A DNA stretch of 64,000 nucleotides, taken from positions 1-64,000 of IMG/VR virus record IMGVR_UViG_3300045993_000757; one strand, 5' to 3'. Below are positions 7,292 to 42,891 of this stretch, in pieces; within the stretch, counting starts at the first letter, position 1, and every line of letters starts with the position of its first letter. The position numbers and the translations under genes were made by a program. A model generated the notes under the pieces. It was not told where the DNA came from, did not search any database, and saw only the letters and a program-made list of their open reading frames with translations. The stretch comes from a virus.

Positions 7292-7506
7292 GGATTTGCC
7301 TTTCTTCCATGGCCGTTGGAAACGTGGGCGCAGTCATCGCAAAGGTGATGGCCACACACGAATCCTCCCAGCGTTTCAGTGCACCCATGCGTGGCCTTGG
7401 CTCCGCACGAGCAACACCTCGCGTCCCGGTGGGAAGAACACCCGTTGGGATTCATCGTCTCAATGCCGCACTCTCCCTCATAGGGAACCTCGTACTTGCA
7501 CTTCAT
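7288..7506 (-). CDS. small Cys/His-rich Zn-finger protein
   Basis: About ten Cys in 72 aa; ATGA overlaps. Confidence 0.7.
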   Translation of the reverse strand: MKCKYEVPYEGECGIETMNPNGCSSHRDARCCSCGAKATHGCTETLGGFVCGHHLCDDCAHVSNGHGRKANP

Positions 7507-20385: not shown

Positions 20386-21929
20386 CCGAGATCCAGAAGG
20401 AGTTCTACGAGGACGGGCATCGGATGCGGATGGCCTACGGGGCTCGAGCGTCAGGGAAAACCTGGGCCGTCGAGCACACCGTGATGAAGCATTTGTGGCG
20501 CTTCAACGCCAGGGTAGCCGTCATCACAAAGACCACCCGCCAGGGATCGCTCGGGGTGTGGCCCGAACTGACCGGGATCATCTTCGACGAGTGGGTGGAT
20601 TCGAAGGTCGGCAATTCGGTCGCTGACTTCGGCTGGTCCGAGAAGCCGCGGCGGGATCCGATCACCAAGATTCACCGGGCTGCGATTCACAATCGCCACG
20701 GTCGATCCAGTGAACTCGTGTTGTTCCCGATCGAGCACGCCAATGAGGCGCTGGAGAAACTGCTGTCCACCCAGTTTTCAGCCATTTGGATTTCAGAAGG
20801 ACATCTCTACGACGACCGATCCATCTTCGACACCGCCCTTGCCCAGCTTCGGCTTCCGAGCGTTCCATTCAAGGAAACGCTCCTCCTGGTAGACACCAAT
20901 CCCCCGGAGACGGGCACCAGCCATTTCCTGCACGACATTTTCTTCAAGGAGCGATGCCGCGAGGAGTGGCCCGAGTATTACACCCAGGAAACTATCGACG
21001 CTTTCAGGGAACGCCAGAAGCAGTTAGGAGTGTTCCGTTTCCCCATCGAATCCAACACGTTCCTCGATCCCGGGCTCAAGGCGCAGATCATTGCACAGTA
21101 CGCGCATGACCCATTTGCCTACCGACGATTTGTTCTGTCCGAGTGGATCGACGGCGTCGTCTCGGGCGTCTTTCAGAACGTCTTCTCTCGACAGCGGCAC
21201 GTCATCGGGAATGCCGACGCGCGCGATCCTGAGGAGTGGCAGATCATCCCACCGGTCCAGACCGTGGACGCCGTCCTGGAGGGTGGTAATCCGCTCCTGA
21301 TCTGCGGCTGGGATATCGGCGAGGTGAACCACGCCTGGGGGTGCCTGCAACCGGTCTACGTGGGGGATACGATCCACTTCCGGGTGCTCGACGAGCTGGT
21401 CTACACGAAGTCCGAGCTTTCCGTGGAGGAGTTCACGGCCCTGGTGATGGAGCGGATGAAGGCCGTGGAGACGATGGCGGGCTTCAAGGTCGAGTGGCGG
21501 CATTACTCTGACTCGTCTGCGTTTGAGTTCCGGGCGGCGATCCGCAGATCTGACCTCCCCCTGGACTCCGACATGACGGACGCGGCCTTGGTCATGGCCC
21601 GGTCAGGGGGCGAGATCGTGCTGGAAGGGAGCGCCCAGGTGAAGAAGCCGGGCTGGCAACGCCGCCGCGTCAACTTCCTGTCTCAACTCCTCCGCCAGGA
21701 CAGGTTGGTCGTCTCGGCCAACTGCAAGATCGTCGTGGCGATGTTCTGCGGCTTGAGGAAGGCAGCCGAGAACTCCAAAAACGGCCCGTATCTAGACCCG
21801 GCCCAGATCGAGAAGCACCCGTTCGACGCCCTGTCCTACGCGATTTCCATGTATTCCCTTGAGGAGATCCTGGAGGGAAACAAGCCGTCTGAAGTAGCCA
21901 CTCGAAGCCCCTCGATGATCATGGCCTGA
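20367..21929 (+). CDS. terL: terminase large subunit
   Basis: GARASGKT, WISEG Walker B, DTNPP coupling motif, GWDIG and HPFDALSY RNase H nuclease. Confidence 0.93.
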   Translation: MWTPRLTEIQKEFYEDGHRMRMAYGARASGKTWAVEHTVMKHLWRFNARVAVITKTTRQGSLGVWPELTGIIFDEWVDSKVGNSVADFGWSEKPRRDPITKIHRAAIHNRHGRSSELVLFPIEHANEALEKLLSTQFSAIWISEGHLYDDRSIFDTALAQLRLPSVPFKETLLLVDTNPPETGTSHFLHDIFFKERCREEWPEYYTQETIDAFRERQKQLGVFRFPIESNTFLDPGLKAQIIAQYAHDPFAYRRFVLSEWIDGVVSGVFQNVFSRQRHVIGNADARDPEEWQIIPPVQTVDAVLEGGNPLLICGWDIGEVNHAWGCLQPVYVGDTIHFRVLDELVYTKSELSVEEFTALVMERMKAVETMAGFKVEWRHYSDSSAFEFRAAIRRSDLPLDSDMTDAALVMARSGGEIVLEGSAQVKKPGWQRRRVNFLSQLLRQDRLVVSANCKIVVAMFCGLRKAAENSKNGPYLDPAQIEKHPFDALSYAISMYSLEEILEGNKPSEVATRSPSMIMA

Positions 21930-24635: not shown

Positions 24636-26996
24636 ATGACGTTCGCGCAACTCAAGTCCAAGCTCCTCGGAACCAACGATGCCCCCGGACTCGCGTTTCC
24701 ACTCGGAACGCCTGAGAACCTTCGCCCCCAGTGCGAAGCGTTCATCGTTGAAGCTCTGATCGAGATCCAACGGTACATCCCCTGTTGGCAGACCGGGCAT
24801 TACGACGTCCACCGGGCTTCGGAAGTCATGGTTTCGAATGGGTGCTCGGTCATTACGTGCCCCACGGGTCAGATTTCCGAGGTCTTCACCATCACGACGT
24901 CCGACGATGGATCTGGATGGGAGCATCCGATACCCTATGTCCCTGTCGATCTTCAGTATCTTCGCCGATGGATGGGGCGATTCCGGTCTTCATTCCGGTT
25001 TATGGGGCAGGAGTTCACTTCGGCGATGGCCGGTAGCGGTTATCGCCTCCCCTCCGTAGCTGACAACTCCCCTTTCGGTCGCGCGCTCTCCGGGGTTTGG
25101 TCGATCGACAAGCTCTCGAACCGACTGATCATCGCCCCGTGGCTTCAGTCCGACGAAAGCGTTGTCGTCGCCTGGACGGGCATCAAACGAACCTGGTCCG
25201 ATGCGGATGTCGTCTCGGACAACCCCGACTTCATTCGTCTGGTCAAACTCTGGCTCTTGCAGGAGTTCGGGCGACACTGGGCCTCGAGCGATTTGGCCAC
25301 GCGCGTCGATACCTGGGCCACCGCCCAGGCGGACTCCATCGTTGAGTGCCAGCACAATCAGCAGCTTCCTATGCGCGGCGGATCGCCTGAAGAAGTCGAG
25401 GCTGCGAAGGCTTTCTACTCCGCCAATCCTCCCGTGGTCCCCGTGGAGACAACCTTCGAAGATGTCCCGACTCGAATCTGCTTCGTGGGAGACACGGGAA
25501 CTGCGGATGCCAACGCCGAGGCTGTAGCTGCCCTTGTGGAAGCTCAGAACCCCGACTTGGTGGTGCTCCTGGGCGATGTGAAGTACCCTCCCAACTCCGC
25601 CGAGACGGCCCTTGCTCCGTATTCCACATTGATCGGATCCGGAAAGTTGGTCACCGCTCTTGGAAACCATGACCTGGACGGAGACGCCGGAGCATCGGTC
25701 CTGGCGGTGGTCAACAATCCCGGCAACGAGCGATATTTCAGCGTGCGAGCGGGCCCCGTCGAGGTATTCGTGATCAACGACGGCCTGAACACCGCGGGGG
25801 CCTACGTTGAGGAGGATGGGAGTTTCATGGGGTCGGTCCAGTGGGCGGCGATCAAGGGCATGATTCTGAGGAGCTGCGCCGCATTCAAAGTCGTGGTCCT
25901 GCATCACGCTCCGTTCACGAGTGGCACTCGATACTCCCCAGGGTTGCTTCAGATGCGTTGGGTGTCAGACCTGGAGGTTCATGCGGTCATCGCTGCCCAC
26001 AGTCACAATTACGAGCGGGGAGACTGGCGCGGCCGGCAGCACTTCGTGGTGGGCACTGGTGGTGGCTCGCCTCAGGATGGGTTCGTGGATTCTCCCGACC
26101 CTGAATCCAAGGAGAGAATCACGGGGTTTGGAGCACTTTTGCTGAGCGCCACCAAGACTGAGGCTAAATTCGAATTCCTGGACCTTGGAGACGTTGTCCT
26201 GGACACGATCACCATCAAGGGATGGCCGACTTACGCTTTGCTTTCGGAATCCCCCACGCTTCCTCCGGATTGGTCCGTGGGTCTTCCGCTGGCTCCAGTT
26301 TTCAGGTTGAGCCCGGCTAGCCAGCGCGTGTTCACCGGAAGCGTGGTGTCAATGCACGTGGTTGTTGCAGGAACCCCTCCCATATCACTTCAGTGGAAGG
26401 AAGATGGAATTGCAATTCCGGGAGCCACGTCACTGTCCTATTCCCTGACGGCTTCCAGGACCGCATTTTACACGGTTGTCGCCACCAACATTTACGGATC
26501 CTCCGAAAGCTCACCTGGCATGGTGCTTCTCGACGTTTTGGCCCAGACCACATTCGCCACGGTTGCCGACATGACGGCTTCGAACCCGCTATCTTGGGCC
26601 ACAGCGGAATGCGAGAACAATGCCCCCGGAGACGACTATATGTCGTTCTGGATTCGGTCTGGGGACGAGACCCGACTTCCCAACGGGATTGATATTCTTC
26701 AGTCGAATGGGCCCGTAAATCCCGGGATTAGTCTGGTTCGCATTTTCGTTCGCGAACCCAGTGGCGGCGTGGTTTTGCCTGGGCCCGGACTTCCTCCGTA
26801 CACCGTGGATGTCCCCGTGGTAGTTGCCACCATCGAGGATCTTCAGAATTCCATCTTCACGGCGCCTCTCGTGTGGGTTGGAGATGAGTCCAATCCTATT
26901 GTGTTCCGACAGGGAAATACCAACGACCTTGATGACGGGGTTAACGGCGTCCTCAATCGGTCGGGAATTCACTACGACCGCATTCAATTTGTATGA
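24636..26996 (+). CDS. putative head-tail adaptor fused to metallophosphoesterase, Ig domain and two tailspike-type modules
   Basis: MTFAQLK adaptor-like start; GDTG, GDVKY, GNHD, HHAP, AHSHNYER; GTPPISLQW...YTVVATN Ig domain. Confidence 0.75.
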   Translation: MTFAQLKSKLLGTNDAPGLAFPLGTPENLRPQCEAFIVEALIEIQRYIPCWQTGHYDVHRASEVMVSNGCSVITCPTGQISEVFTITTSDDGSGWEHPIPYVPVDLQYLRRWMGRFRSSFRFMGQEFTSAMAGSGYRLPSVADNSPFGRALSGVWSIDKLSNRLIIAPWLQSDESVVVAWTGIKRTWSDADVVSDNPDFIRLVKLWLLQEFGRHWASSDLATRVDTWATAQADSIVECQHNQQLPMRGGSPEEVEAAKAFYSANPPVVPVETTFEDVPTRICFVGDTGTADANAEAVAALVEAQNPDLVVLLGDVKYPPNSAETALAPYSTLIGSGKLVTALGNHDLDGDAGASVLAVVNNPGNERYFSVRAGPVEVFVINDGLNTAGAYVEEDGSFMGSVQWAAIKGMILRSCAAFKVVVLHHAPFTSGTRYSPGLLQMRWVSDLEVHAVIAAHSHNYERGDWRGRQHFVVGTGGGSPQDGFVDSPDPESKERITGFGALLLSATKTEAKFEFLDLGDVVLDTITIKGWPTYALLSESPTLPPDWSVGLPLAPVFRLSPASQRVFTGSVVSMHVVVAGTPPISLQWKEDGIAIPGATSLSYSLTASRTAFYTVVATNIYGSSESSPGMVLLDVLAQTTFATVADMTASNPLSWATAECENNAPGDDYMSFWIRSGDETRLPNGIDILQSNGPVNPGISLVRIFVREPSGGVVLPGPGLPPYTVDVPVVVATIEDLQNSIFTAPLVWVGDESNPIVFRQGNTNDLDDGVNGVLNRSGIHYDRIQFV

Positions 26997-29900
26997 AAAC
27001 CATTCCTCTGCTGGCGCTTCTCCTCATAACCGCAATCTCGGCAATGGGGCAGGGCGCGGCGAGGGTGGTGCCGACGCTCGCGCGGCTTCTTCAGATTAAT
27101 CCCTACGCGGTAGCCACGGGAGACGTCCTCGCCTACGAGGTCATCTCCCCGACCACGAGTACATCGTGGGGAGCCCCGCGAGTGGCCTTCTGGACTCCTG
27201 CCGCCACCCTCGCCCCGAACGGAACCAACGTGTTCCCCTCGCCCTTCGGCGGGCGCTGGGTGTTCATGGACAAGGACGACCCCATCCAGAATGCCTCCTG
27301 GTATGGATTCCCCAACCTGTACGCCATCGACAGCCACGGGAACCTGACGCTTGGGAATACCAACGTCGCCGGGAAGCTCTCCTCCCTGGATGCAGCCGTC
27401 CAGAACCGGGCCTTCCTCGTCCACTTCCACGACGCAGCCGACGTGAACTCTGGGCGGTTCACGGCCAACCGGCTGGGGAATGGAACGCCCACCACGAACA
27501 CCTTCCTCCGCGGTGACGGGGAATGGGCAATCATCACGACCAACGGAACGTCGATCGGCGCGGGCGGCTCGAGCATGACCGTCAAATCAGTCACCGTGAC
27601 GAACCTGACCGACAGTCCGGCACTGGGTTGGTCTATCGTCGGACAGGAGGCCTCGCCCTACATCCTCTCGGGAGCGCACATCACCAATGCGTTCCTCCCC
27701 GGGGCGACGGTGGGGAGCAGTCTGACCGCGCTCGATCTCGGAACGGACACGGGCCCATTCGGGCTGCTCTACGAGATGATGGGGAGAAGCGTGATCTCTG
27801 GGCGGGTGATCGCCATGGATGCCCCCAAAGCGCGGACAGTCCTGGACGCAGCCTGGGCCAAGCACACCCACACCAGCTTCCAAAACCTGACCATCCTGGA
27901 CCAGCTGTGGATCCAGTCCCTCAACGTCCTGACCAAGTTCAGCGAAGTAGACGTCAGCCTCACCCAACGCCAGGGCGCGAGCCCGTACTTAACGAACGTG
28001 GTCCAGGACACGCAGACGAACTTCTTCTTCGCCGGAGACAACCACGACTACCGGGCGGTGACCACGAATGCGATCCCGGGGCTGATCGGAGACCTGGCCA
28101 ACCTGGGGGCGCATCGGGTCTTCGTGAAGGGACTGGCCACAACGAACTTCGACGACATCGACCTCACTGTCGTCTCCGGGATTCGGGGATACACCAACGG
28201 CATTGGCTGGCGTGTGGTGAATGGAACCGCGACCCCTTTCATTAAGTCCAACGCGGTGCTGCACAACCCGCAGTTCGCTATCATCAACAGCCCCACCACG
28301 GTCAAGCAGCTGATGCAGCTTGGTGGCGTCACAAATCTTCACGTCCCCTATTTCAGTTCGACCCCGCCCATCGGCTCCGCGTCAGACACCAACACGATTC
28401 AGATGCGGTCTACGGACTTCGGCACGATTATCACCAACGCGAACCTGGCCTACATCACCAACGTCGTCCTGAGGACGGGCTCCGACATGACCGGGGACCT
28501 TAACCTCCTCGGAGGCGCGAATCTCTCGGTCGGTGGGAATACCACCAACCACGCCACGGTCGTGCTGGGAAACCTCACCGTCTCGGGAACGACCACGCTC
28601 TCGAACAATCTCTCAGCCCCCTCGATCACTCTCGGCGGCGCGACGCGCACGAGCTTCGACCAGCTTCAGACCGGCGACGTGATCCTCACGAACATCCTGG
28701 CGAATGCCTCAGGATCGAACTTCTGGGCCGGTGACCACACGTATAAGGCGATCACCACGAACATGATCCAGGGTCTGGTGGGCGACATCGCCGCAGCAGG
28801 GACCTATCGGGTGGCCGTGAAGGGGACGGTGATCACGAACATCGATGATGTTGGGGCGGGCGCAACGGCCAGCGTCGGATGGGTGATAACCAATGGCACG
28901 GCGACAGCGCGAGTGAAGGCTGGGGCGATCATTCGCACCCCACGGCTCGCGATCAACGATTACCCCGCTGGGGCCCAATCACTTCTCCTATCCGGAGGCG
29001 TCACGAATCTCGGCATCGCGTACTTCACCTCTCGTGGATCTGTCACGCCAGACGACGACAACCCGCTCACCATTCGGGCGACCGACCTCGGGACCATCAT
29101 CACCAACGCCGGCTTGGCCTACGGGGTCAACTACCTCCCCATCATCGGAGGCACGCTCACGGGACCTCTCACAGTCCCTAGCGTGACCGTGCAGGACTCC
29201 GCCACAGTGAACGGGGATCTCCTGGTCACTGGAGGCGCCGGGCTGCTTCATATTTACGCCGGAAGCATCCAGTTCACGGACACGAGCTTGGTCACCTCCT
29301 GGAACCAGGTGCAGGGCGGCTCTGTGATTCTGACGAACATCCAGGCGAACGCCGCCACGAATGCCTTCTGGGCGGGAGACCACGTCTACCGGGTGGTCAC
29401 GACCAACATGATTCCCGGGCTCAACGCCATGTTCGGACGGGACATTGACGGGAGCAACGTGGTGTCCGGCTACGTGCCCGTCGCACGGCTGGGCTCCGGA
29501 AGCCCCACCACGAACACGTTCCTGCGCGGGGACGGATCCTGGGCGGCCCTCACGACCAACGGCAGCGTTACCGCGGGGACGACCAACGCCATTTGGGTGA
29601 AGGGCAACTACGTCACCAACTTCCTCGACGGCCCGAACGTCTCCTTCGCGATCAGCGGGCAGCAGGCCTTCCCATACATTCCGATCGGCGCCTCGGTCAC
29701 CAACCTCAACTCCGTCGGAACGCTCACGAGCGCCGCCATCACCGCCAGCGGGGACATCACCGCCGCGTCGAGCACCCTCTCGGCGAACTCGGTGCAGGCG
29801 AACAGCCTGCTCACCAAGGCCTCCATCCACTCGGTGAACGACACGGCCTCTCCCTACCTCGCCTTCTTCGACAACGACCCCACGTCGCTCCAGCGCACGC

Positions 29901-32581
29901 TGTACGCCGTTCCCATGGCGGGCCTGTTCACGAACGTACCCAACCTCCAGGTCAAGGGGAGCCCGGTGACCAACCTCCTCGACACGGGCTCTCAGATTCA
30001 GTGGACCGTCACGGGGAAGACGGCCACGCCCAGCATCCGCTCCGGGGCGCATCTGACCAACATGATCGCCCAGACCCCGCTCATTGAAACCTCCGTGAAC
30101 AGGGCGGGCTTCGTCTCCACGCTCGGATCCTTCGGCGTCGAGAACACGTCGCTCCTCTTCGTCAACGGCATCACCGGAACGAACTCGGCGGCCTCCATGC
30201 AGGCGGTGGATCTGGGCACGATCGTGACCAACGTGGGGCTGGCCTACGCGACCAACTACGTGCCCAAGACGGGCGGCACGTACACGGGCAGTCTGATCCT
30301 CTCCAACGCAGCCAACCTCACCCTCTCGAGCGGGAACCTCCTGGTGGGCGGCAACGCCACGGTGACGAGCAACCTCACGGTCACCCAGAGCATCACCCTG
30401 GGATCGACCCGGACGAGCTTCGATCAGTTGCAGACCGGCAACCTCATCCTCACGAACGTCCTCGCGACCGTCGATCCTACGAACTTCTGGGCGGGTGACC
30501 ACACCTACCGGCCGGTGACGACCAACGCCATCCCCGGGCTCGTGCGTGATATCCTGAGCTTCCACCCCATGACGGTGGAGAGCCAGGTCGCGACGAACAT
30601 CTTCGATCCCATCGCGGCCACGAACAACATCGGGTGGACACTCTACGGGCAGCAGGCTCTCGCCTTCGTCAAACCGGGGAGCCGGCTGACCCAGAACGAG
30701 CTCATCCATCCCACCATGCAATCGACGGTCGATGCGGCCGGGTTCAACACGATCCTGACCACGGTGGGCGCGGCGAACACCTACATCCCGTTCTACCTGA
30801 CTGCCGCTCCGGGGATCTCGGCGAACCCCCTGGAGGCCGTGGACCTTGCCAGCGTGGTCTCTGGGCTGGGACTGGCCTACGCGGGCGACTACCTCCCCCT
30901 CACGGGTGGCGAGTTGTCAGGCGACCTGACGGTGCGGAGCTCACTCTACGTGACCGGGGATACGCTCCTGAATGGGAGCCTGGATGTCCCCGACATCTCG
31001 ACGTCGCTCATTCACTTCAATGACGGAACCTCCTTGAGCAGCATGAACCAGGTGCAGGGAGGATCCTCGATCCTGACCAACATCCAGGGCACAGCCGACC
31101 CGTCCTGGTTCTGGGCGGGCAACCACGTCTATAAGGCGGTGACGACCAACATGGTCCCGGGCTTGGTCGGGGACGTGGCCAACCTTCAGACCTCGATCAA
31201 CCGGCGACAGCTTGGAAGCCTCGTCCTGACGAACGTCTCCAACCTCACGGGGGGCACGTCCAACAACTTCTTCGCCGGGGACGGGGTGTTCAAGACGATC
31301 ACCACGAACATGATCCCCGGTTTGGTGCAGGACATTCTCAATGCCGCGGCTTTACCGGTTGGAGGCGGAGGAACGTGGACGAGCGTCGGGGTGAATGGGG
31401 AGTACCGGAACCAGTGGGATCTCGTGGATAGTCCCTCCATCGTGTGGGACAAGTCCGTCCCGCCACTCTTCGTCTACCAGACTCGCCCGATAATCAAACC
31501 GACTGGAGTGCTTCCGTTGCATCTCCATCCGACCACGGTCGCTTTGTTCGCGTTGGTTGATCATAATCACGTGGGTTTCAACGGAGAGCTCTGGCTCAGT
31601 GACTCGACCATAACCAGGCCCTCATTTACGACGGTCATAGGAAAGTCTGCGAGTGCGTCCTCTCTATACGGGACAGCATTAGGCGCTTCAGTCACCGTGA
31701 CGGGCACGGAAGGATCGAGCTTTGGGGCTGCTTCGGTAGTCACCGCAGCTCGAGGCACGGCGCTCGGGACGGCTGCATTGACGACCCACCCAGAAAGCAC
31801 GTCTGTCGGGTATGCCGCCGTGACGACTGCCGCAAATCAGATACGGCTTGGAAGAGAATCAGAGACAGTTTCCATACCTGGACTCTTGCAGATCGCCGGC
31901 ACCACGACCATCGGATCCACGAACGTCGCCCTAGCCATTGCCGGGAAGGCGGACCTGGGCCACGACCACCCGGCGTCGGCCATTGTTTCGGGAGTGATGG
32001 ATCCCGCTCGGCTGGCATCCTCGGGCACTCCAAGCGGATCCACATTTCTGCGCGGAGACCAGACGTGGTCGGTCCCATCTGGGAGTCCGTCCTTCGTGGC
32101 TTCAGGTGTAAGCGTTGGGGTAAACATCACTGGTTCTTTGCTCCTAGGAGTGCGTTCTGGAGAGACGCTCACGTTTGCAGCCAACACGCTCGCGAATAAA
32201 CTGATCCACGTTCAGGCGATGGGCACGTGGAGTACAGCGACGTCGAATTGGTCGGGTAACGAGATGAAGATCGTTATAGGGGGCTTCTCGTATAAGTACA
32301 CTACCGTCGAGACCGGATCCGAGGAGTTCACCAATGAGAACTGGAAGTTCGACGTTTTCATACCGGCAAGCCAAGTGTCCTCAACGTGGGGCACGTTCGA
32401 CAGGAGAACCGACAGGCCTAACGGAAGCGTACTCGGGTTCAAGACGTGGGTATCCGAGTCAGCTGCGGGGACGGGGAGCATCACGCTTACCAACCCAAAC
32501 ACTTTCGATTTGTATTTCACCAACGGGGCCCAGTCGATGAACGACGTAACCTGTACCCGAGTGGTAGTCACCATCCTCTGA
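26993..32581 (+). CDS. giant repetitive tail fibre/adhesin with Sec signal peptide (1862 aa)
   Basis: MKTIPLLALLLITAISAMG-Q; TFLRGDG and NFWAGDHxY repeats; TGGxxTG motifs; YadA-head-like repeats near the C-terminus. Confidence 0.8.
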   Translation: MKTIPLLALLLITAISAMGQGAARVVPTLARLLQINPYAVATGDVLAYEVISPTTSTSWGAPRVAFWTPAATLAPNGTNVFPSPFGGRWVFMDKDDPIQNASWYGFPNLYAIDSHGNLTLGNTNVAGKLSSLDAAVQNRAFLVHFHDAADVNSGRFTANRLGNGTPTTNTFLRGDGEWAIITTNGTSIGAGGSSMTVKSVTVTNLTDSPALGWSIVGQEASPYILSGAHITNAFLPGATVGSSLTALDLGTDTGPFGLLYEMMGRSVISGRVIAMDAPKARTVLDAAWAKHTHTSFQNLTILDQLWIQSLNVLTKFSEVDVSLTQRQGASPYLTNVVQDTQTNFFFAGDNHDYRAVTTNAIPGLIGDLANLGAHRVFVKGLATTNFDDIDLTVVSGIRGYTNGIGWRVVNGTATPFIKSNAVLHNPQFAIINSPTTVKQLMQLGGVTNLHVPYFSSTPPIGSASDTNTIQMRSTDFGTIITNANLAYITNVVLRTGSDMTGDLNLLGGANLSVGGNTTNHATVVLGNLTVSGTTTLSNNLSAPSITLGGATRTSFDQLQTGDVILTNILANASGSNFWAGDHTYKAITTNMIQGLVGDIAAAGTYRVAVKGTVITNIDDVGAGATASVGWVITNGTATARVKAGAIIRTPRLAINDYPAGAQSLLLSGGVTNLGIAYFTSRGSVTPDDDNPLTIRATDLGTIITNAGLAYGVNYLPIIGGTLTGPLTVPSVTVQDSATVNGDLLVTGGAGLLHIYAGSIQFTDTSLVTSWNQVQGGSVILTNIQANAATNAFWAGDHVYRVVTTNMIPGLNAMFGRDIDGSNVVSGYVPVARLGSGSPTTNTFLRGDGSWAALTTNGSVTAGTTNAIWVKGNYVTNFLDGPNVSFAISGQQAFPYIPIGASVTNLNSVGTLTSAAITASGDITAASSTLSANSVQANSLLTKASIHSVNDTASPYLAFFDNDPTSLQRTLYAVPMAGLFTNVPNLQVKGSPVTNLLDTGSQIQWTVTGKTATPSIRSGAHLTNMIAQTPLIETSVNRAGFVSTLGSFGVENTSLLFVNGITGTNSAASMQAVDLGTIVTNVGLAYATNYVPKTGGTYTGSLILSNAANLTLSSGNLLVGGNATVTSNLTVTQSITLGSTRTSFDQLQTGNLILTNVLATVDPTNFWAGDHTYRPVTTNAIPGLVRDILSFHPMTVESQVATNIFDPIAATNNIGWTLYGQQALAFVKPGSRLTQNELIHPTMQSTVDAAGFNTILTTVGAANTYIPFYLTAAPGISANPLEAVDLASVVSGLGLAYAGDYLPLTGGELSGDLTVRSSLYVTGDTLLNGSLDVPDISTSLIHFNDGTSLSSMNQVQGGSSILTNIQGTADPSWFWAGNHVYKAVTTNMVPGLVGDVANLQTSINRRQLGSLVLTNVSNLTGGTSNNFFAGDGVFKTITTNMIPGLVQDILNAAALPVGGGGTWTSVGVNGEYRNQWDLVDSPSIVWDKSVPPLFVYQTRPIIKPTGVLPLHLHPTTVALFALVDHNHVGFNGELWLSDSTITRPSFTTVIGKSASASSLYGTALGASVTVTGTEGSSFGAASVVTAARGTALGTAALTTHPESTSVGYAAVTTAANQIRLGRESETVSIPGLLQIAGTTTIGSTNVALAIAGKADLGHDHPASAIVSGVMDPARLASSGTPSGSTFLRGDQTWSVPSGSPSFVASGVSVGVNITGSLLLGVRSGETLTFAANTLANKLIHVQAMGTWSTATSNWSGNEMKIVIGGFSYKYTTVETGSEEFTNENWKFDVFIPASQVSSTWGTFDRRTDRPNGSVLGFKTWVSESAAGTGSITLTNPNTFDLYFTNGAQSMNDVTCTRVVVTIL

Positions 32582-32585
32582 ACTC

Positions 32586-35500
32586 ATGAAGACGATCACC
32601 ATCATAATCCTGTCCCTGATTGGGATAGTCGGGAACGCAGCGCAGCGATTCACCCCCCTCGTCACCGCCGACAATGTCGGATCCCTGACGATCACAGTCC
32701 CCGTCACGGGACAATCCGTCGTCGTGCTGGGGCAGACCAATCCATTCGACGCGCCCCTGAGGATCGCCAAGAACTACCCAGCGGGCGTCTTCGTAGTCGA
32801 TGGCGTCACGAACCTGACCGCGATCGGAGACAGCGTGTGGCACCTCGTGCCGTTCAGCCTGATCAGCAACCCGAACCTTCTGGCCATCTACAGCCTGACC
32901 GGAGGGACCGCCTCGAACTTCTTCCGGGGTGACGGGGCGTTCCAGCAGGTCGGGACCAATGACATCCCCGGCCTCGCTCGGGACCTGGGCAACATCACGG
33001 CCTCCATCGGATCCTTCCAGCCCGTCTCAGGAGTCCTTTCCAACGCCGCGGCAGGAGGCTCACCCACGAACTTCTTCGCCGGGGACGGGGTCTACAAGCC
33101 GATCTCGACCAACTACATCGCGGGGCTCGTCTTGGACATGGGCAACCTCGCGCAGGCGATCCTGGCCCGCCAGCCGGCCTCGGTGGCGCTGTCGAACCTG
33201 ACGGCCAACCCCAGCCTCTACCAGAGCACCAACGTATTCCTGACGGGGATCAGTGCGGGTGGGGCCTCCACCAACTTCCTCGCCGGGGATGGGGCCTACA
33301 AGGCGCTCTCGACGAACTACGTCCAGGGCTTGGTGGGAGACGTGGCGAATCTCAACTCCGCGCTGTCCACACGTCAGGCTGGCTCCGTGGCTCTCTCGAA
33401 TCTCACGGCGAATCCAAACCTGTACCAGGCCAGCAACTCAGCACTGACCACAGTGGTAGCTGGCGGCACTTCCTCGAATTTCTTCCGCGGCGACAAGGTC
33501 TACGCCCAGGTCACCACCAACGACATACCCGGGCATACGGCTAACATGGCCAACCTCCAGACGTCGATCAGTGGTCGTCAGGCCGGGTCCACTGTCCTGA
33601 CCAACGTGGCCGCCCTCACCAGCGGAACCTCGTCCAACTTCCTGCGGGGCGATGGCGCATTCGCTCAGGTCACCACCAATAACCTTCCGGGCCACAACGC
33701 GGACATGGCCAACCTTCAGGTCGCCATCAATGCCCGGCAGGCCGGATCCACCGTCCTGACCAACGTCGCGGCTCTGACCAGTGGCACATCCTCGAACTTC
33801 CTGGCCGGGGATGGGACCTTCAAACAGGTCGTCACCAATGCGATCCCTGGCCTCGCCGGAGACCTTTCCAACATCAACGTGGTGGTCTCTCTCAAGCAGA
33901 TCGGCTCCGCAGCCCTGTCCAATCTCACGGCCAATCCGAATCTGTACCAGTCGAGCAACTCCACCCTGACGACTGTCGTCGCTGGGGGAACGAGCTCGAA
34001 CTTCTTCCGTGGAGACAAGACCTACGCGCAGGTCACGACCAACGACATCCCGGGGCACAACGCTGACATGGCAAGCCTCAACTCCTCGCTCGCCCTGACG
34101 CAGCTTGGATCCGCGGCGCTCTCGAACCTCACGGCGAACCCCAACCTATACCAGGCGAGCAACTCCGCACTGACCGACCTATCGATTGGCAACGGTTCCT
34201 CGCTAACGAACATCGGCAACGCCGGCACGAACTACGTGCTGAAGACAGGCGGCACGATGACGGGAACGCTGATTGCCACGGCGGTCAAGACAGCGGACCT
34301 CTTAGGGGGAACTTCGGTGAGCGGTGGAACGAACGTCCTGGAAGTAATGAATGGCACCGCTACGAACCACAACTCGATTGCGATTGGAGTGAATTCTAGC
34401 ACGGGTGCGTACACGAATACGATGGCTATAATGGGAGCACAGCCAAACGGGAATAACAGTTTCTGGGTTGGTGGCACAACAACCTACACCACCCTTTTAT
34501 CGGGGCCTGTCTATATGGCTGGAAGTTCCACTTTGATTTCTGCCGGTGCGATAAAGTTGGACGGTGGAACTCCTGGCAGCGGCGCGAGTCGATCATTTGC
34601 ATGGCGTGGACGGGCTACCAATAACGACGCCGCAGCCTTCGGCCAACTTGCCAGCACCGAGACATGGACCAACGCCGTCGCCCTTGGGAGTGAGAGCACG
34701 AACACGGCGAACAACCAGATCATGCTGGGATCGACCTATGACACGGTAGTCGCTCCGAATCTTCTTTCGGTGGGCACGATCTCAGGAAGCGGCGCGGGCC
34801 TCACGAACGTGGCGATGCGAGGGCTAGGGCAGCCCGAGGCAAGCGGGGTATCGTTCACTTCGGGAACTCGAGTTTCAGGAGCAGCACAATCGATTGGCAC
34901 GAATGCCTGGTCGGTATGGTCCAGGATAAAAGTTCCCATTTCAATTTGGTCAGGAACGCCAGAAAAGATTATTTGGAAGGCCAGCCAAGATGGCGTGGTA
35001 TTCGGAACCAACAGCCTGATGGTAGAGTTCCGAGCCGGCGATCTGCGTATTTACAAGCACAGTTCATCCGCTGGAGGAAATTACAGATTGGCCACGTGGA
35101 CTGGTCTCCGAACTCAATACGACAACCAGATCATAGACCTTGTAATAGTTAAGGGTTCCTATACGAATCCTCCATCGCTGTACGTAAATGGAACTAACAT
35201 AGCTTTCTCAACAGAGTCATCGACTGGTACGGCATCCGTTACTAACTGGGCAGAGCATGTGGCATGGGAGGGTTTCTCGGTGGGAGGAGGAGACCCCGCG
35301 TTGAGCGGTGGAACATATAACGGCACAATCTACAGAACGGCAGTATTCAACAGAGCACTATCCCAAGACGACGTTACTTCTTTGGTCAACAATGGAATAG
35401 CACCCGAGGATCAGTGGGGAAATTCTGACGCACCGATAATATCCCCAAATCCATCCAGGCTGAATGGCGGGTTCGAGACAAATAGTCTTAATTCCAGTGG

Positions 35501-37013
35501 AACCTGGGCTGCGGGTGGATCCACGGGAGGAGAATCAATATCTATAGATACGAGCGGGACCAACTCATACAGCGGATCAAACGCTGCCCAGTTCGTTTTC
35601 ACCTCATCCCAAGGCTCTTGGATCGCAGCGGATAATGCGTCCACAAATATATCCTTGGTTGGAAAAAGAAATCGAGCGTCCTATTGGATTAAACAATCTC
35701 AATCGTCCACAAATACGGCAGCCATATTCAAGCTGACCACCGCCGGGACAGCAACGCAGAGAGCGGTGTCAGGCGTCGTTACGACTAATTGGACACAGGT
35801 CTCAGCGGAGTATGTATCTGTCACAGCTGCCGTGTCCGAGGCTGTCTTCATAAGTTCTATGTCCGGTTCCCAAAATGGCACTTTCTTTGTGGATGATGTC
35901 GAGATTGTCCGCATCGGAGCCATCCTCGATCTAGACTTCACGGGCGGATACGGAACCACAGTTCCGGACCGATCGAGCAACCTGCTCATCGCGACAAATT
36001 ACGGCGGGGTGAGCTACACGCTGCCAACGAGAGCTGTGTACCTCCCAACGGTAGTATCGGCTTCCGGAAGCATTACAGTATCTTCCAATGTGGCTGCGGC
36101 GACGGCAACCCTCGGATCGCTTACCCTCACGAACGCTGCGACAGGGAGCGGAACTTTCCCACAAATCTGGTACTACACAAACTCCCAGACCGCCACGTGG
36201 ACGAATCCGCCCGGCGCTCGACTCATCGAGGTTTTCGCTTGGGGTTCGGGTGGTGGAGGAGGTTCTGGACGGCGCGGACTCACGAACACGATTCGCACGG
36301 GTGGCGCGGGTGGCGCGAGCGGAAATTACTCCTACGCTTTCTTCCTTCCTGCGGACCTAACGTCAACGGTCGGGGTTACCAACGGAGCGCACGGCGTGGG
36401 GGGTGCCGCTCAATCGACGGCGAGTTCAAACGGAAGTGCTGGTACTGCTGGCGGAATCACTTCATTCGGGAATTACTGCGCGGCATCGGGTGGTGGTGGT
36501 GGTGCGGCGGGAAACACCACAACAACGGCTGGTGGAGCTGCTAGTACGGTGTTCCTACTAACCATCGGAGGTACTGGCGGCGACGCATCGGCAACGGGAG
36601 GAAACGGAAGCGCTGCCTCGTACCAAGGGCTTGTCCATCATTTGTTCGCTCAGGGCGGTGGAGGAGGTGGCGGAAACAGTGTCGCGAATGTGATCGGTAA
36701 CGGAGGAAACGGCGGAACCGGTGCGCGAATCAACATCCCGTCCGCGTTGAATGGTGTCGGCGGAACATCGGCGGGTCAGGCCGGTACTGCTGGCGCGAGT
36801 TCTGGCAACAATTCCACATTTGCTGGTGGCAGCGGAGGCGGTGGAGCTGGTGGCGGGAATTCTGCGGCGGGTGGAGACGGTGGAAACGGAGGCTCTCACG
36901 GAGCGGGTGGTGGAGGAGGAGGAGCAGGTACGGATGCAACTGGTGTGACCGGAGGTGCATCAGGCAAGGGAGGAGACGGAGCAGACGGACTGTTAATCAT
37001 CATCGCAAGGTAA
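32586..37013 (+). CDS. second fibre with Sec signal peptide; LamG-like, CBM-like and Gly-rich domains (1475 aa)
   Basis: MKTITIIILSLIGIVGNA-A; NFxxGD repeats; LYVNG...FNRALS; NGGFE...VDDVEI; WGSGGGGGSG...GGDGADG. Confidence 0.8.
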   Translation: MKTITIIILSLIGIVGNAAQRFTPLVTADNVGSLTITVPVTGQSVVVLGQTNPFDAPLRIAKNYPAGVFVVDGVTNLTAIGDSVWHLVPFSLISNPNLLAIYSLTGGTASNFFRGDGAFQQVGTNDIPGLARDLGNITASIGSFQPVSGVLSNAAAGGSPTNFFAGDGVYKPISTNYIAGLVLDMGNLAQAILARQPASVALSNLTANPSLYQSTNVFLTGISAGGASTNFLAGDGAYKALSTNYVQGLVGDVANLNSALSTRQAGSVALSNLTANPNLYQASNSALTTVVAGGTSSNFFRGDKVYAQVTTNDIPGHTANMANLQTSISGRQAGSTVLTNVAALTSGTSSNFLRGDGAFAQVTTNNLPGHNADMANLQVAINARQAGSTVLTNVAALTSGTSSNFLAGDGTFKQVVTNAIPGLAGDLSNINVVVSLKQIGSAALSNLTANPNLYQSSNSTLTTVVAGGTSSNFFRGDKTYAQVTTNDIPGHNADMASLNSSLALTQLGSAALSNLTANPNLYQASNSALTDLSIGNGSSLTNIGNAGTNYVLKTGGTMTGTLIATAVKTADLLGGTSVSGGTNVLEVMNGTATNHNSIAIGVNSSTGAYTNTMAIMGAQPNGNNSFWVGGTTTYTTLLSGPVYMAGSSTLISAGAIKLDGGTPGSGASRSFAWRGRATNNDAAAFGQLASTETWTNAVALGSESTNTANNQIMLGSTYDTVVAPNLLSVGTISGSGAGLTNVAMRGLGQPEASGVSFTSGTRVSGAAQSIGTNAWSVWSRIKVPISIWSGTPEKIIWKASQDGVVFGTNSLMVEFRAGDLRIYKHSSSAGGNYRLATWTGLRTQYDNQIIDLVIVKGSYTNPPSLYVNGTNIAFSTESSTGTASVTNWAEHVAWEGFSVGGGDPALSGGTYNGTIYRTAVFNRALSQDDVTSLVNNGIAPEDQWGNSDAPIISPNPSRLNGGFETNSLNSSGTWAAGGSTGGESISIDTSGTNSYSGSNAAQFVFTSSQGSWIAADNASTNISLVGKRNRASYWIKQSQSSTNTAAIFKLTTAGTATQRAVSGVVTTNWTQVSAEYVSVTAAVSEAVFISSMSGSQNGTFFVDDVEIVRIGAILDLDFTGGYGTTVPDRSSNLLIATNYGGVSYTLPTRAVYLPTVVSASGSITVSSNVAAATATLGSLTLTNAATGSGTFPQIWYYTNSQTATWTNPPGARLIEVFAWGSGGGGGSGRRGLTNTIRTGGAGGASGNYSYAFFLPADLTSTVGVTNGAHGVGGAAQSTASSNGSAGTAGGITSFGNYCAASGGGGGAAGNTTTTAGGAASTVFLLTIGGTGGDASATGGNGSAASYQGLVHHLFAQGGGGGGGNSVANVIGNGGNGGTGARINIPSALNGVGGTSAGQAGTAGASSGNNSTFAGGSGGGGAGGGNSAAGGDGGNGGSHGAGGGGGGAGTDATGVTGGASGKGGDGADGLLIIIAR

Positions 37014-37482: not shown

Positions 37483-37785
37483 ATGAAAACTCTCGCCCTC
37501 CTCTCCACGCTCCTCTCCATAGGCTGCACCTCGGTGACCAAGAGCATCGTCACGGAGATCCACTGGACGGATGGGAAGCGGACGTTCAGCTACACGTCCC
37601 CGAAGGACACCACGGTCTCGAGGGTTCATTTCGACACGGTCACGGGGGTGTTCATTTTGAGCAATCTCTCCACTCAGGTGGACCAGGGGATCGTTCAGGC
37701 GGCAGCCACGGCTCGGGCAAATGATTCTCTGGTACTCCTTGAGGCCTTGAAGCTTGCGGCAGAGGCTGCTCGAAAAGCACCATGA
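37483..37785 (+). CDS. lipoprotein (possible spanin component)
   Basis: MKTLALLSTLLSIG-C lipobox. Confidence 0.7.
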   Translation: MKTLALLSTLLSIGCTSVTKSIVTEIHWTDGKRTFSYTSPKDTTVSRVHFDTVTGVFILSNLSTQVDQGIVQAAATARANDSLVLLEALKLAAEAARKAP

Positions 37786-38327
37786 GTATTTCTACGATAT
37801 TCGCCGACATCGCTAATACACCCATCCTGCACGATCCTGTGGAAATGGGTGCATGGACTGCGATGATCGGATTGTTCGCCACCCTGGGGAAGATGGCGCT
37901 GACGAAGATCGACAGGATGATCGTCCTGGTGATCAAGACGCAGGAGAAGCAGGTCCAGGATCAGAAGGAGGCCGCGAACGGACTGGTTGTCCGGCATGCC
38001 GAGCAACTCGAGCAGCTGTCGAAGGCCCACCGGGATCAGACCGAGAGGATCGCCAAGGAGCATGCGGCCGGCATCGAGCGCATGGCCGAGGCGCACGCGA
38101 GCCAGGTGGAGGTCCTCACGGGCGTGACGATCGAGAACAAGACTGCCATGACCGCCCTCCTTGTGCAGATCGACAGGTACACCCGGGAGATGCGGGAGAT
38201 GCGGGGCGTCATGACTGACGTGCGTGACGTCATCGCACTCTGCCCCGGGGGCAGCGAGGCGATTTCCCGCCGGGATCGACGAGACGCTCGGAACCATGAA
38301 AAGTCACCTGAGAAAGAACCTCTATGA
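37782..38327 (+). CDS. single-TM plus coiled-coil protein (holin- or spanin-like)
   Basis: N-terminal hydrophobic segment followed by a long coiled coil. Confidence 0.6.
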   Translation: MSISTIFADIANTPILHDPVEMGAWTAMIGLFATLGKMALTKIDRMIVLVIKTQEKQVQDQKEAANGLVVRHAEQLEQLSKAHRDQTERIAKEHAAGIERMAEAHASQVEVLTGVTIENKTAMTALLVQIDRYTREMREMRGVMTDVRDVIALCPGGSEAISRRDRRDARNHEKSPEKEPL

Positions 38328-41799: not shown

Positions 41800-42891
41800 A
41801 TGGCGGCTGCCCCGATTCTTCCAGGAGATGTTTGTGCGCTTCGAGTCTCCACGACATCGAGTCCATGCGTCAAAGCGACTTCGGCGCAGCAAACCACGAA
41901 CGCATTGTGTTCGCTTGTCACCTGGATGATGAATGCGGACGGAACTGTCTCGGATCTTTTCAAGGAATGGGCCGGGACTGGTGGCGGAGGAACGGGTGGA
42001 ACATCTGAACTTGCTGCTCCAAGTGGAGTCACGGCAAGCAGCGACCGAACGACGGACATTAAGGTTCAATGGTCGAGCGTTTCTTCGGCTACGAACTACA
42101 CAGTCTACCGAGGAACCAGTTCTGATCCTGCAACCATGTCGATCATCGCCGGGCCGATCACCGAATTGTCTTACTTGGACACGAGCGCGGCATCTCACGT
42201 TGGAACTCATTATTTCTACTCCATAAAGGCATCAAGCTCCGTTTTGAACAGTGGCTTTTCAGCGGTGGCCGAAGGAGTTGTTCCCACGAGCGCAGGAGGG
42301 TCTAGCACGGTGACAGATTATCAGAATCCAGGAACTCTTAGGACAGTCGTCGTCCCATCGGGTGTTAGCGTAATGGAAATTCAGATTTGGGGAGGTGGTG
42401 GTCCCGGTGGAACGGAACCATCAACCGGCATAGACAGTTGGATTCCGGCGGGGGCTCCACCGTTCCTTTTTGGGGGAGGGGGATCTAGCGGGGCTTTTAT
42501 TCAGATCACAGGAGTTTCGGTTACTGTCGGACATACTTTCATCCTAGACGTGGGTGCGTCCGGAGAATCATCGATGATCTACGATACGACCTTCGGAAGC
42601 TCCACCTTCGCCTACGCTTCGGGGGGGAATTCCGGTGGAAATGCTACCCGGAGTTCAGTTCCGGGATCCGGCGGAGCTTCTCCTGTAACATCTGGAGAAA
42701 ACTTTCTTGGATCCGGAACTATGGATACTGTTACCCCAGCCAATCCTGGTACAGATGGAAGTGCTACTGCTGGAATTGGAGGAGCAGCGATTGCCTTTGG
42801 TGGTATATCGGCAGGAGCCGGAGGGAATGGTTCCAAAGGAGGAACCATACTCCCTGGCAAGGCGGGACGCATCAAGGTGATCTTTACGTGA
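41800..42891 (+). CDS. FN3 plus glycine-rich domain virion protein
   Basis: APSGVTAS...VQWSSV...YTVYR...YFYSIKA; IWGGGGPGG...GRIKV. Confidence 0.8.
   Translation: MAAAPILPGDVCALRVSTTSSPCVKATSAQQTTNALCSLVTWMMNADGTVSDLFKEWAGTGGGGTGGTSELAAPSGVTASSDRTTDIKVQWSSVSSATNYTVYRGTSSDPATMSIIAGPITELSYLDTSAASHVGTHYFYSIKASSSVLNSGFSAVAEGVVPTSAGGSSTVTDYQNPGTLRTVVVPSGVSVMEIQIWGGGGPGGTEPSTGIDSWIPAGAPPFLFGGGGSSGAFIQITGVSVTVGHTFILDVGASGESSMIYDTTFGSSTFAYASGGNSGGNATRSSVPGSGGASPVTSGENFLGSGTMDTVTPANPGTDGSATAGIGGAAIAFGGISAGAGGNGSKGGTILPGKAGRIKVIFT

Follow-up and report, generated by a model that had tools for sequence, protein, structure and literature searches.

Both giant tail-fibre genes of an uncultured pond/wetland bacteriophage encode proteins that open with a canonical, conserved export signal, and we consider it probable (roughly three chances in four), judging from the sequences, that these fibres are exported via the Sec pathway. 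The genes lie within the window, i.e., the whole stretch of DNA analysed here (64,000 nucleotides), which is part of a complete virus genome of 75,109 bp. The original prediction had proposed that the fibres are exported and possibly glycosylated after export; the export part stands, at sequence level, with conserved and canonical signals on real phage fibres, while the glycosylation part does not. The DNA was detected in metagenome runs from ponds and wetlands, and several of these may represent the source sample; no RNA run was among the sequencing runs listed for it.

The N-terminus of fibre 1 reads MKTIPLLALLLITAISAMG ahead of the predicted cut, followed by QG, and that of fibre 2 reads MKTITIIILSLIGIVGNA, followed by AQ (Table 1). 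Each n-region carries a charge of +1 (K2 in each), each hydrophobic core is uncharged (15 residues in fibre 1, 12 in fibre 2), and both fibres have small residues at -3/-1 of the predicted cut. Hence, the n/h/c signal peptides originally read on both ORFs are borne out, as the ORFs are as described and charge, core, and -3/-1 residues all fit. Such a combination of a positive residue, a 12–16-residue core, and an AxG/AxA site is recognised by SRP/SecA and signal peptidase I in any bacterium. A single fixed signal rule was passed by 3 of 59 genes (the two fibres and the lipoprotein gene at 37483), against a background of 7 of 435 six-frame ORFs. Among relatives, h-regions comprise 12–16 residues (mean Kyte-Doolittle 2.0–3.1), and cores of this length fall short of what stable anchoring in a membrane requires; the abundance of Leu and Ile in them led us to reject a weakly hydrophobic anchor of the SAR type. 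Twin-arginine motifs and lipobox cysteines were absent from the N-termini of the fibres and their relatives when read by eye. Tat export was rejected for want of a twin arginine, and the single K/R in the n-region fits the Sec rather than the Tat route. AF2 models place a helix at residues 4–19 in fibre 1, with a low-confidence break at 16–20, and at residues 3–16 in fibre 2.

Table 1. Positions of the fibre genes, their parts, and nearby genes in the window.
Feature	Position	Strand	Basis
786-aa protein: calcineurin-like phosphoesterase, Ig domain, C-terminal module	24636..26996	+	Metallophos E 8.5e-11, Ig_3
Fibre 1 (P0001, 1862 aa)	26993..32581	+	ORF, translation
Fibre 1 predicted Sec/SPase I signal peptide	26993..27049	+	Residues 1-19, cut between AMG and QG, n/h/c features
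Fibre 1 mature N-terminal domain, residues 20-130	27050..27382	+	Family alignment; Q20, G21, R24 invariant
Fibre 2 (P0002, 1475 aa)	32586..37013	+	ORF; Gly_rich_2, phrog_863, phrog_754, phrog_8859
Fibre 2 predicted signal peptide	32586..32639	+	Residues 1-18, cut between GNA and AQ; alternative 1-19, between NAA and QR
Fibre 2 mature N-terminal domain, residues 21-93	32646..32864	+	Fold as in fibre 1
Fibre 2 repeat region, 7 copies of NF(F/L)xGDGxYxxxTNxIPG	32919..34145	+	Motif count
Fibre 2 glycine-rich distal domain	36180..37010	+	PF21722 residues 1199-1319; phrog_8859 residues 1156-1466
Small lipoprotein-like gene (MKTLALLSTLLSIGC...), adjoins fibres	37483..37785	+	Only gene besides the fibres to pass the signal rule
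Signal-less Gly-rich comparison protein	41800..42891	+	No hydrophobic N-terminus

The signal is retained in 13 of 13 fibre 1 relatives and in 9 of 9 fibre 2 relatives (8 of 8 N-domain homologues plus P0039), the latter including short forms of 205–215 aa. All relatives found thus keep the hydrophobic N-terminus, the loss of which in homologues the original prediction had named as counter-evidence. Signal peptides of the fibre 1 family span 17–22 aa, with G or A at -1 in all 13 members and A, S, G, or T at -3 in 12 of them; a fitting cut site is present in 9 of 10 proteins of the fibre 2 family, P0039 being borderline. Of 15 proteins (the fibre 1 family plus the two fibres), 14 have an n-region charge of at least +1, the exception being P0009 with 0; a positive n-region was also read in every relative of fibre 2. 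The signal is less conserved in sequence than the domain that follows, with pairwise identities of 0.34 versus 0.55 in the fibre 1 family and 0.29 versus 0.43 in the fibre 2 family, and signal peptides usually drift more in sequence than the adjacent mature domain.

These extensions could also be artefacts, that is, mis-called starts or chance hydrophobic stretches upstream of real proteins that begin further down. An in-frame ATG does occur at codon 18 of fibre 1 (Met18), just before the predicted cut, and neither fibre start has a clear Shine-Dalgarno motif. Nonetheless, such an artefact is very improbable. Relatives have F, I, L, or H at codon 18, there is no start codon near the fibre 2 cut, and neither fibre family has a conserved downstream start. 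Both starts abut the preceding stop (the fibre 1 start codon overlaps the stop of the preceding gene as ATGA, and fibre 2 begins 4 nt past the fibre 1 stop), an open, Met-Lys/Arg-initiated hydrophobic extension is found in 22 relatives, and Shine-Dalgarno motifs are rarely used genome-wide (11 of 46 genes versus 12.5% at random positions). True starts downstream, likewise named beforehand as counter-evidence, are therefore contradicted by gene packing and by the replacement of Met18.

The bodies of both proteins are fibre-like, as originally described, with the motif NF(F/L)xGDGxYxxxTTNxIPGL in seven copies in each; fibre 2 also matches Gly_rich_2 (PF21722) at E 1e-8, as well as the tail families phrog_863 and phrog_754. 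Fibre 1 itself matched only phrog_10464 (unknown function), and weakly, while its 13 homologues (1046–2481 aa) carry the Pfam YadA head repeat (PF05658), DUF5907, and Fibritin_C; the Laminin_G_3 call rests on a precomputed match of the homologue P0018. The claimed absence of a C-terminal TM or autotransporter barrel also agrees with what was found in either fibre. Searches of Pfam/NCBIfam gave no match to a YadA-like C-terminal anchor barrel or to a C-terminal hydrophobic family in either fibre, and no match at E <= 0.01 to a T9SS C-terminal sorting domain (P0001, P0002, P0003, P0008, and P0012). Export by a T9SS or autotransporter route was rejected on the basis of these searches.

Structural comparison of the N-domains, based on models of moderate confidence (pLDDT 65 and 72), matched residues 22–93 of fibre 1 to 14 solved phage tailspikes (Z 5.8–9.2, rmsd 2.0–2.8 Å, with one tailspike alignment at 6.3 Å and the next unrelated match at Z 3.2); the best match had a Z of 9.2 and an rmsd of 2.0 Å over 68 residues. 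When the fibre 2 N-domain was compared, without Foldseek, with 48,161 PDB representatives, the top 15 matches were 14 phage tailspikes or tail fibres and the tailspike-like bacterial protein WceF (Z 4.6–7.4). BFVD matches of the fibre 1 N-domain were likewise tail fibres and tailspikes, and hhalign aligned the fibre 2 N-domain with the fibre 1 family at E 1.2e-4, the register being kept all the way from the signal. In both fibres, the tailspike N-proximal fold begins 2–5 residues past the predicted cut. In solved phage tailspikes, this domain precedes the beta-helix or opens the chain, and it stands at the chain N-terminus in Kp7 gp52, K2-2 TSP, and the K1 lyase (ranges 9–15 onwards). With a tailspike-type domain directly behind the cut, the two proteins are therefore identified as true phage receptor-binding proteins; we read them as genuine fibres of "secondary tailspike" design, in which a small N-domain leads into an extended shaft of repeats that ends distally in variable tips of lectin-like or Gly-rich type. 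The 205–215-aa proteins mentioned above have the fibre 2 N-domain together with the signal, and hence this module is not restricted to fibres.

Sequence-level similarity of the fibres to solved tailspikes was absent from tblastn searches of 50,697 isolated phages and from PDB sequences. PDB sequence searches with the fibres gave no match at all, solved MAT tips included, and the ESM Atlas returned only sub-threshold tail-fibre look-alikes. Within the 50,697 isolated-phage records, tblastn found no counterpart of the N-terminus of fibre 1 or of the repeats and the distal half of fibre 2. Scanning IMG/VR with fibre 2, or with the alignment built on fibre 1, likewise yielded no relatives.

Secondary or branched tailspikes (Kp7 gp52, K2-2 TSP, and the NTUH-K2044-K1-1 K1 lyase) share the N-proximal fold, several of them at the very N-terminus, as do CBA120 TSP2/TSP4, Acinetobacter phage Fri1 gp49, and AM24. 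Kp7 gp52 is a Klebsiella phage type II tail fibre, and the comparison set consists of podo- and myophages. Conserved proximal parts, swapped distal parts, and a place among late-module genes are common to these proteins and the fibres described here. To our knowledge, however, those podo- and myophage tailspikes have no signal peptide and are assembled in the cytoplasm, and their bodies are beta-helix depolymerases, whereas those here consist of fibre repeats, lectin-like modules, and Gly-rich tips. The receptor-binding protein pIII of filamentous phages carries a Sec signal peptide and becomes part of the virion outside the cytoplasm. The fibres resemble pIII in being receptor-binding proteins with a Sec signal; inoviruses, however, assemble by membrane extrusion, whereas the virus here is a tailed, head-packaging phage, since it encodes a terminase and a portal.

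Export signals on fibre-shaped proteins are also known from bacteria. Trimeric autotransporter adhesins (YadA) are long, Sec-exported trimeric fibres whose head repeats recur in the fibre 1 homologues, but the C-terminal beta-barrel anchor of that family is absent here. WceF of Pantoea stewartii, a trimer with the tailspike fold, shares the N-proximal domain of the fibres (Z 6.5) and has an N-terminal export signal; this exopolysaccharide-modifying enzyme is exported pre-folded by way of a Tat signal (PDB 6TGF; PMC7949094), whereas the fibres, with one K/R and no twin arginine, would use Sec. The MAT (mosaic adhesive trimer) proteins of Bdellovibrio bacteriovorus begin with a signal peptide and, directly behind it, a conserved beta-rich N-domain of ~130 aa; they continue as a trimeric shaft that resembles phage tail fibres and end in tips that are mosaic and can be exchanged (Caulton et al. 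2024, PMC10769870). Likened by architecture alone, they share with the fibres the order of signal, N-domain, shaft, and tips and the lack of a recognisable outer-membrane anchor; MATs, encoded on the chromosome of a predatory bacterium, are displayed on its own surface, whereas the fibre genes lie beside the terminase and portal in a complete phage genome.

Regarding the host, a lipoprotein gene and a 2-TM holin-like gene speak for a diderm, and together with the Shine-Dalgarno counts they indicate a diderm with weak Shine-Dalgarno use. Fibre 1 relatives have Q at +1 of the predicted cut in 13 of 13 cases (invariant Q20), and about half of the fibre 2 family has Q at +1 or +2. R24, at +5 from the cut, is invariant in the fibre 1 family; this counts against export, as an Arg close after the cut can slow Sec export in E. 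coli. Under the Bacteroidetes Q-rule, Gln is the residue directly after the SPase I cut (Bochtler et al. 2018, PMC5837995). The predicted cut may accordingly hint at a Bacteroidota host, although the invariance of Q20 could be structural rather than a product of the Q-rule. No tRNA genes were found in the phage genome, and its large terminase, searched by tblastn against the 50,697 isolated phages, matched only a Bacillus phage at 24% identity. A related locus, L007, is contained in a MAG labelled "Rhodoferax"; this MAG has no terminase match, and the label is doubtful because of the weak Shine-Dalgarno use.

The original prediction also held that both fibres are rich in TN dipeptides and N-x-S/T sequons. 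For TN this is correct, with 49 in fibre 1 (z 8.7 over shuffles, matching a hand count of 45–50) and 39 in fibre 2 (z 7.3), an excess that stems from the fibre repeat motif. Sequons, in contrast, are at composition expectation (27 versus 27.2 in fibre 1, 25 versus 27.1 in fibre 2; z about 0), and D[ST][AILVMT], the motif for O-glycosylation in Bacteroidetes, falls short of it (4 versus 8.2 and 2 versus 4.7, respectively). Enrichment of N- or O-glycosylation motifs was therefore rejected, and the idea of glycosylation after export is without support. In the signal-less protein at 41800, TN and sequon counts are both at expectation; further signal-less candidate tail proteins are encoded at 42888 and 46063. 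Disulfide-dependent periplasmic folding was rejected as well, cysteine making up 0.1% of the fibres.

The lack of such cysteine and glycosylation signatures of extracytoplasmic life would suit an alternative in which the hydrophobic N-termini do not export the virion pool and the fibres attach in the cytoplasm, the N-terminus being removed by a cytoplasmic protease of phage or host, tethering the protein transiently to the inner membrane face, or aiding assembly or trimerisation. Cytoplasmic assembly is, as far as we know, universal among studied tailed phages. We nevertheless regard this alternative as quite unlikely, given that the charge, core, and cut pattern is canonical and that staying in the cytoplasm would need a mechanism of active avoidance. 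Poor sequence conservation combined with a kept physico-chemical pattern and cut site also argues against a specific structural contact, and positive charge before the core favours an N-in/C-out orientation with the body exported (positive-inside rule). A precedent for such retention may come from phages of Porphyromonas gingivalis, in which proteins with predicted Sec/SPI signals expose Gln at +1, in keeping with the Q-rule, and the signal peptides of capsid proteins have been interpreted as prohead-protease substrates and not as signals for export (Matrishin et al. 2023, PMC10367356). Besides the capsid proteins, that set includes spanins and five genes whose function is not known; its members were taken to modify the envelope, and, unlike the case described here, it names no tail fibre or receptor-binding protein (PMC10367356).

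The fibre genes are located inside a late block, flanked by the large terminase (20367–21929) on one side and a weak P22-portal match (39455–41755) on the other, which upholds the location in the structural block of what is now seen to be a complete phage genome. As a pair they take up 13% (10 kb) of the 75-kb genome, which looks lytic. The 786-aa protein encoded directly upstream lacks a hydrophobic N-terminus, and its stop overlaps the fibre 1 start (ATGA). Its residues 594–782 are homologous (E 9e-27) to a signal-less 259-aa protein that, in a second locus (L008), is encoded directly 5' of a signal-bearing fibre. The order of signal-less module protein, signal-bearing fibre, and second signal-bearing protein recurs in L007 and L008, the two other contigs whose gene order was read, which have different backbones. 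Comparison of the fibre N-termini with the upstream protein was not significant by BLASTP (hhalign E 0.15), and a complex prediction for its C-terminal module with the fibre 1 N-domain scored 0.00, which is uninformative either way.

These surroundings also bear on whether the exported fibres are virion components at all. They may instead act as non-virion factors on the envelope of the infected cell, anchored by the N-domain, either masking receptors (superinfection exclusion, or protection of progeny from debris) or serving as surface adhesins like the Bdellovibrio MAT. Several observations fit this role: the signal and N-domain also occur on short non-fibre proteins, the genome holds other, signal-less candidate tail proteins, and a small exported lipoprotein gene adjoins the fibres, recalling T5 llp, which adjoins the T5 receptor-binding gene. 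The architecture, with a beta-rich N-domain of about 110–130 aa behind the signal, moreover matches that of 21 surface-displayed MAT fibres (Caulton et al. 2024, PMC10769870). We nonetheless judge an envelope role somewhat unlikely, as 13% of the genome is devoted to these genes in the late block between large terminase and portal, and the ATGA overlap couples translation of fibre 1 to that of a signal-less module protein, which accompanies the fibres in other phages too. Furthermore, the N-domain fold is that of virion-bound tailspikes, and signals for outer-membrane translocation or anchoring (barrel, T9SS C-terminal domain, lipobox) are lacking.

The reading that we favour, tentatively, is that the Sec-exported fibres join the virion late. 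The unfolded nascent chain would pass through SecYEG across the inner membrane of a diderm host, and signal peptidase I would cut at AMG/QG in fibre 1 and near NA/AQ in fibre 2. The freed N-terminus, possibly pyroglutamate if the host belongs to the Bacteroidota, would lie immediately before the tailspike-type domain, and the fibres would trimerise in the periplasm. More speculatively, they might meet the DNA-filled particle, built in the cytoplasm, only after holin action has breached the inner membrane, with the outer membrane as yet intact, and might dock through their N-domains, perhaps onto the co-travelling upstream protein. This proposed partner is itself signal-less. The whole chain, from Sec precursor through cleavage and periplasmic trimer to docking after holin opening, is possible rather than probable. 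Rather doubtful still is its generalisation to a two-compartment assembly, in which heads and core tails would be cytoplasmic, and Sec-exported, periplasm-folded fibres would be attached between holin opening and outer-membrane rupture, a span of seconds. Signal-less socket protein and signal-bearing fibres would then form a portable unit, common to unrelated phage backbones with one type of freshwater diderm as their host. We know of no studied tailed phage that assembles its fibres anywhere other than the cytoplasm.

In textbook accounts, the fibres of tailed phages are both folded and attached in the cytoplasm, and our literature searches found no report of signal peptides on the tail fibres of tailed phages. 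Conservation of an export signal on receptor-binding proteins across whole uncultured lineages would point to one of two unrecognised things, namely an assembly route with periplasmic fibre maturation and joining at lysis or a class of phage-encoded, fibre-shaped envelope factors. Either would affect the annotation of receptor-binding proteins in metagenomic phages, the expression of fibres for engineering (with or without leader, and in the periplasm instead of the cytoplasm), and the prediction of host range.

Both giant fibre proteins begin with N-termini that fit Sec signal peptides, as the original prediction had claimed. Fibre 1 (1,862 aa) opens with MKTIPLLALLLITAISAMG, with QG behind the predicted cut, and fibre 2 (1,475 aa) with MKTITIIILSLIGIVGNA, followed by AQ; both combine a single positive charge with an uncharged hydrophobic core (15 and 12 residues, respectively) and small residues at -3 and -1. 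In any bacterium, Sec and signal peptidase I act on an N-terminal positive residue, an uninterrupted hydrophobic core of 12-16 residues and an AxG or AxA site. A genome-wide rule (n-region net positive, core hydropathy sum ≥22, core ≤18 residues) was met by only 3 of 59 genes, namely both fibres and a small lipoprotein-like gene at 37483-37785, against a background of 7/435 six-frame ORFs. The start codon of fibre 1 shares an ATGA with the upstream gene's stop codon, and fibre 2 starts 4 nt past the fibre 1 stop. A search for true starts further downstream found an in-frame Met at fibre 1 codon 18, where relatives have F, I, L or H, and, in fibre 2, no start codon close to the expected cleavage position.

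The signals are also present throughout the relatives recovered. Fibre 1 residues 1-330 retrieved 13 proteins (1,046-2,481 aa, contigs up to 74 kb), all with a Met/Val-Arg/Lys start, a 12-16-residue hydrophobic core and, behind the cut site, an invariant Gln-Gly; these signals span 17-22 residues, with G/A at -1 in 13/13 and A/S/G/T at -3 in 12/13. An exhaustive HMMER search with fibre 2 residues 1-110 yielded eight true N-domain homologues, three long (903-1,402 aa) and five short (205-215 aa), every one with a signal-like N-terminus. The same holds for P0039, a ninth protein, which is related to the fibre 2 body and differs in its N-terminus. Signal peptides usually retain their cut site and physico-chemistry while their sequence is free, and the lower pairwise identity of the signal than of the domain behind it (0.34 vs 0.55 and 0.29 vs 0.43 in the two families) follows this pattern. 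Since none of the 13 and 9 relatives lacks a hydrophobic N-terminus and no downstream start is conserved, neither possibility counts against the original prediction. The signal is real and conserved, and it is very improbable that it is an artefact.

The bodies of both proteins are phage-fibre-like, as described originally. The motif NF(F/L)xGDGxYxxxTTNxIPGL occurs seven times in each; a Gly_rich_2 domain lies at the end of fibre 2, which also matches tail PHROGs, and the homologues contribute matches to Fibritin_C, DUF5907, YadA head repeats and Laminin_G_3. In AlphaFold models of both N-termini, of moderate confidence (pLDDT 65 and 72), the signal is helical, and a weak linker at the predicted cut leads into a small beta domain. 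Residues 22-93 of the fibre 1 model matched solved structures of 14 phage tailspikes or tail fibres (Z 5.8-9.2, rmsd 2.0-2.8 Å, 6.3 Å in one alignment; next unrelated chain Z 3.2), with a Foldseek probability of ~1 but E ~0.1. For fibre 2, 48,161 PDB representatives were searched independently of Foldseek, and the top 15 comprised 14 phage tailspikes or tail fibres and the tailspike-like WceF (Z 4.6-7.4). Every match falls on the small domain preceding the beta-helix, a domain that opens the chain in Kp7 gp52, K2-2 TSP and K1 lyase. Compared by hhalign, the N-domain families of fibres 1 and 2 are in register along an alignment that takes in the signal (E 1.2e-4). Together, the repeat motifs, family matches and N-domain fold indicate real phage receptor-binding proteins, and the models suggest that the predicted mature N-terminus of both would be the onset of a tailspike-type proximal domain.

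The fibre genes belong to a conserved, portable three-gene module, whose arrangement recurs on two contigs with different backbones, L008 (19 kb, 54.5% G+C) and L007 (8.6 kb, from a MAG labelled Rhodoferax). L008 encodes a signal-less, free-standing 259-aa homologue of the C-terminal module of the upstream 786-aa protein (residues 594-782, E 9e-27), then a signal-bearing 2,485-aa fibre 1 homologue, then a 207-aa protein with a signal and the fibre 2 N-domain, and further signal-bearing ORFs downstream. On L007, the fibre 1 homologue precedes a signal-bearing protein related to the body of fibre 2. The homologues P0003 and P0016, from 26,876-bp contigs of one source, are probably encoded on a single contig. 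The late block of L008, which belongs to an unrelated phage, has four more ORFs with signal-like N-termini (4708-5214, 15357-15980, 15977-17524 and 17982-19061); one follows a capsid-like gene, one (515 aa) matches a head-decoration PHROG (E 8.5e-7) and one combines a lipobox-like LLAC with a CBM_4_9 match.

We estimate a probability of about three in four, judging from the sequences, that at least part of the fibre protein is exported via Sec; that the hydrophobic N-terminus leaves the virion pool unexported is distinctly unlikely. The conserved signal supports the export originally proposed, but not the accompanying glycosylation. The strong excess of TN dipeptides (49 and 39; z 8.7 and 7.3) stems from the fibre repeat motif, whereas N-x-S/T sequons, also claimed to be abundant, match composition (27 vs 27.2 expected in fibre 1, 25 vs 27.1 in fibre 2), and the Bacteroidetes O-glycosylation motif falls below expectation. 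The cysteine content of 0.1% gives no pointer to disulfide folding. Family searches found no autotransporter barrel in either fibre, as first noted, and no T9SS C-terminal or other sorting domain; Tat export was rejected as the twin-arginine motif is absent.

Tentatively, folding of the exported fibres might take place in the periplasm, with attachment to particles following once holin action breaches the inner membrane. In favour of this order of events are the tailspike-type domain that cleavage would leave at the N-terminus, the translational coupling to a signal-less module protein that also travels with the fibres, and the share of the genome (13%) spent on them. Exported fibres could instead act on the infected cell's envelope in a receptor-masking or adhesive role, an alternative considered only slightly less probable; the architecture, identical to that of Bdellovibrio MAT fibres (PMC10769870), the adjoining lipoprotein gene and the sharing of signal and N-domain by short proteins that are not fibres lend weight to it.

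The genome, rated complete, comprises 75,109 bp with 127-bp terminal repeats and 61.4% G+C; the window is its first 64 kb. Metagenome runs from ponds and wetlands contain near-identical DNA. No relatives were found among isolated phages or in IMG/VR, and most genes lack family matches. Between the large terminase and the portal match, a plus-strand block encodes 611-aa, 175-aa and 786-aa proteins, the two giant ORFs and several small genes. The gene pair right after the fibres, without a match in family searches, may represent either a spanin-like pair or an exclusion lipoprotein of the Llp/Cor type; a probable lysis cassette lies distant from the fibres.

Features of the phage genome (record coordinates)
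Feature	Position	Strand	Details
RadC-like protein	1860-2393		JAB domain, E 2.6e-31; early region, as are the next two
ERCC4 nuclease	7503-8069
Toprim-domain protein	8882-11539		885 aa
DUF6734 protein and GT2-like glycosyltransferase gene	16099-18536		E 6.6e-14; GT2 match weak; just 5' of packaging genes
Large terminase	20367-21929		phrog_2 E 7e-20; Terminase_6N
Upstream protein	24636-26996	plus	786 aa; calcineurin-like phosphoesterase (E 8.5e-11), Ig domain, C-terminal module
Fibre 1	26993-32581	plus
Fibre 2	32586-37013	plus
Lipoprotein-like gene, then 181-aa protein	37483-38327		MKTLALLSTLLSIGC...; second protein with weakly hydrophobic N-terminus and long charged helix
Portal	39455-41755	minus	P22-type, weak match
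Single giant ORF	47905-64000		5,932 aa; runs on to 65703; 24% of genome
Probable lysis cassette	66336-67100		72 aa, two TM segments (holin-like); 126 aa, one TM and charged tail

The lipobox gene beside the fibres and the two-TM holin-like gene (66336-66554) suggest a diderm host. A core Shine-Dalgarno motif precedes 11 of 46 genes (12.5% at random positions), a sparseness that fits hosts with little Shine-Dalgarno use, fits Rhodoferax poorly and suggests that the bin label of L007 is doubtful. Every member of the fibre 1 family has Gln at +1, as do many of the other signal-bearing proteins, which agrees with the Bacteroidetes Q-rule of Gln at +1 of the cut site (PMC5837995), although as a host clue this sequence pattern is only a lead.

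A literature search found no report of a tailed-phage fibre with a Sec signal. The nearest cases in print are the signals described by Matrishin et al. (2023), WceF and the MAT fibres. In the Porphyromonas phages of Matrishin et al., capsid, spanin and unknown genes carry signal peptides, some obeying the Q-rule, whereas here the signals are on receptor-binding fibres; WceF is a bacterial tailspike-like enzyme exported by Tat, unlike the fibres. The proteins described here are phage receptor-binding fibres made as predicted Sec precursors.
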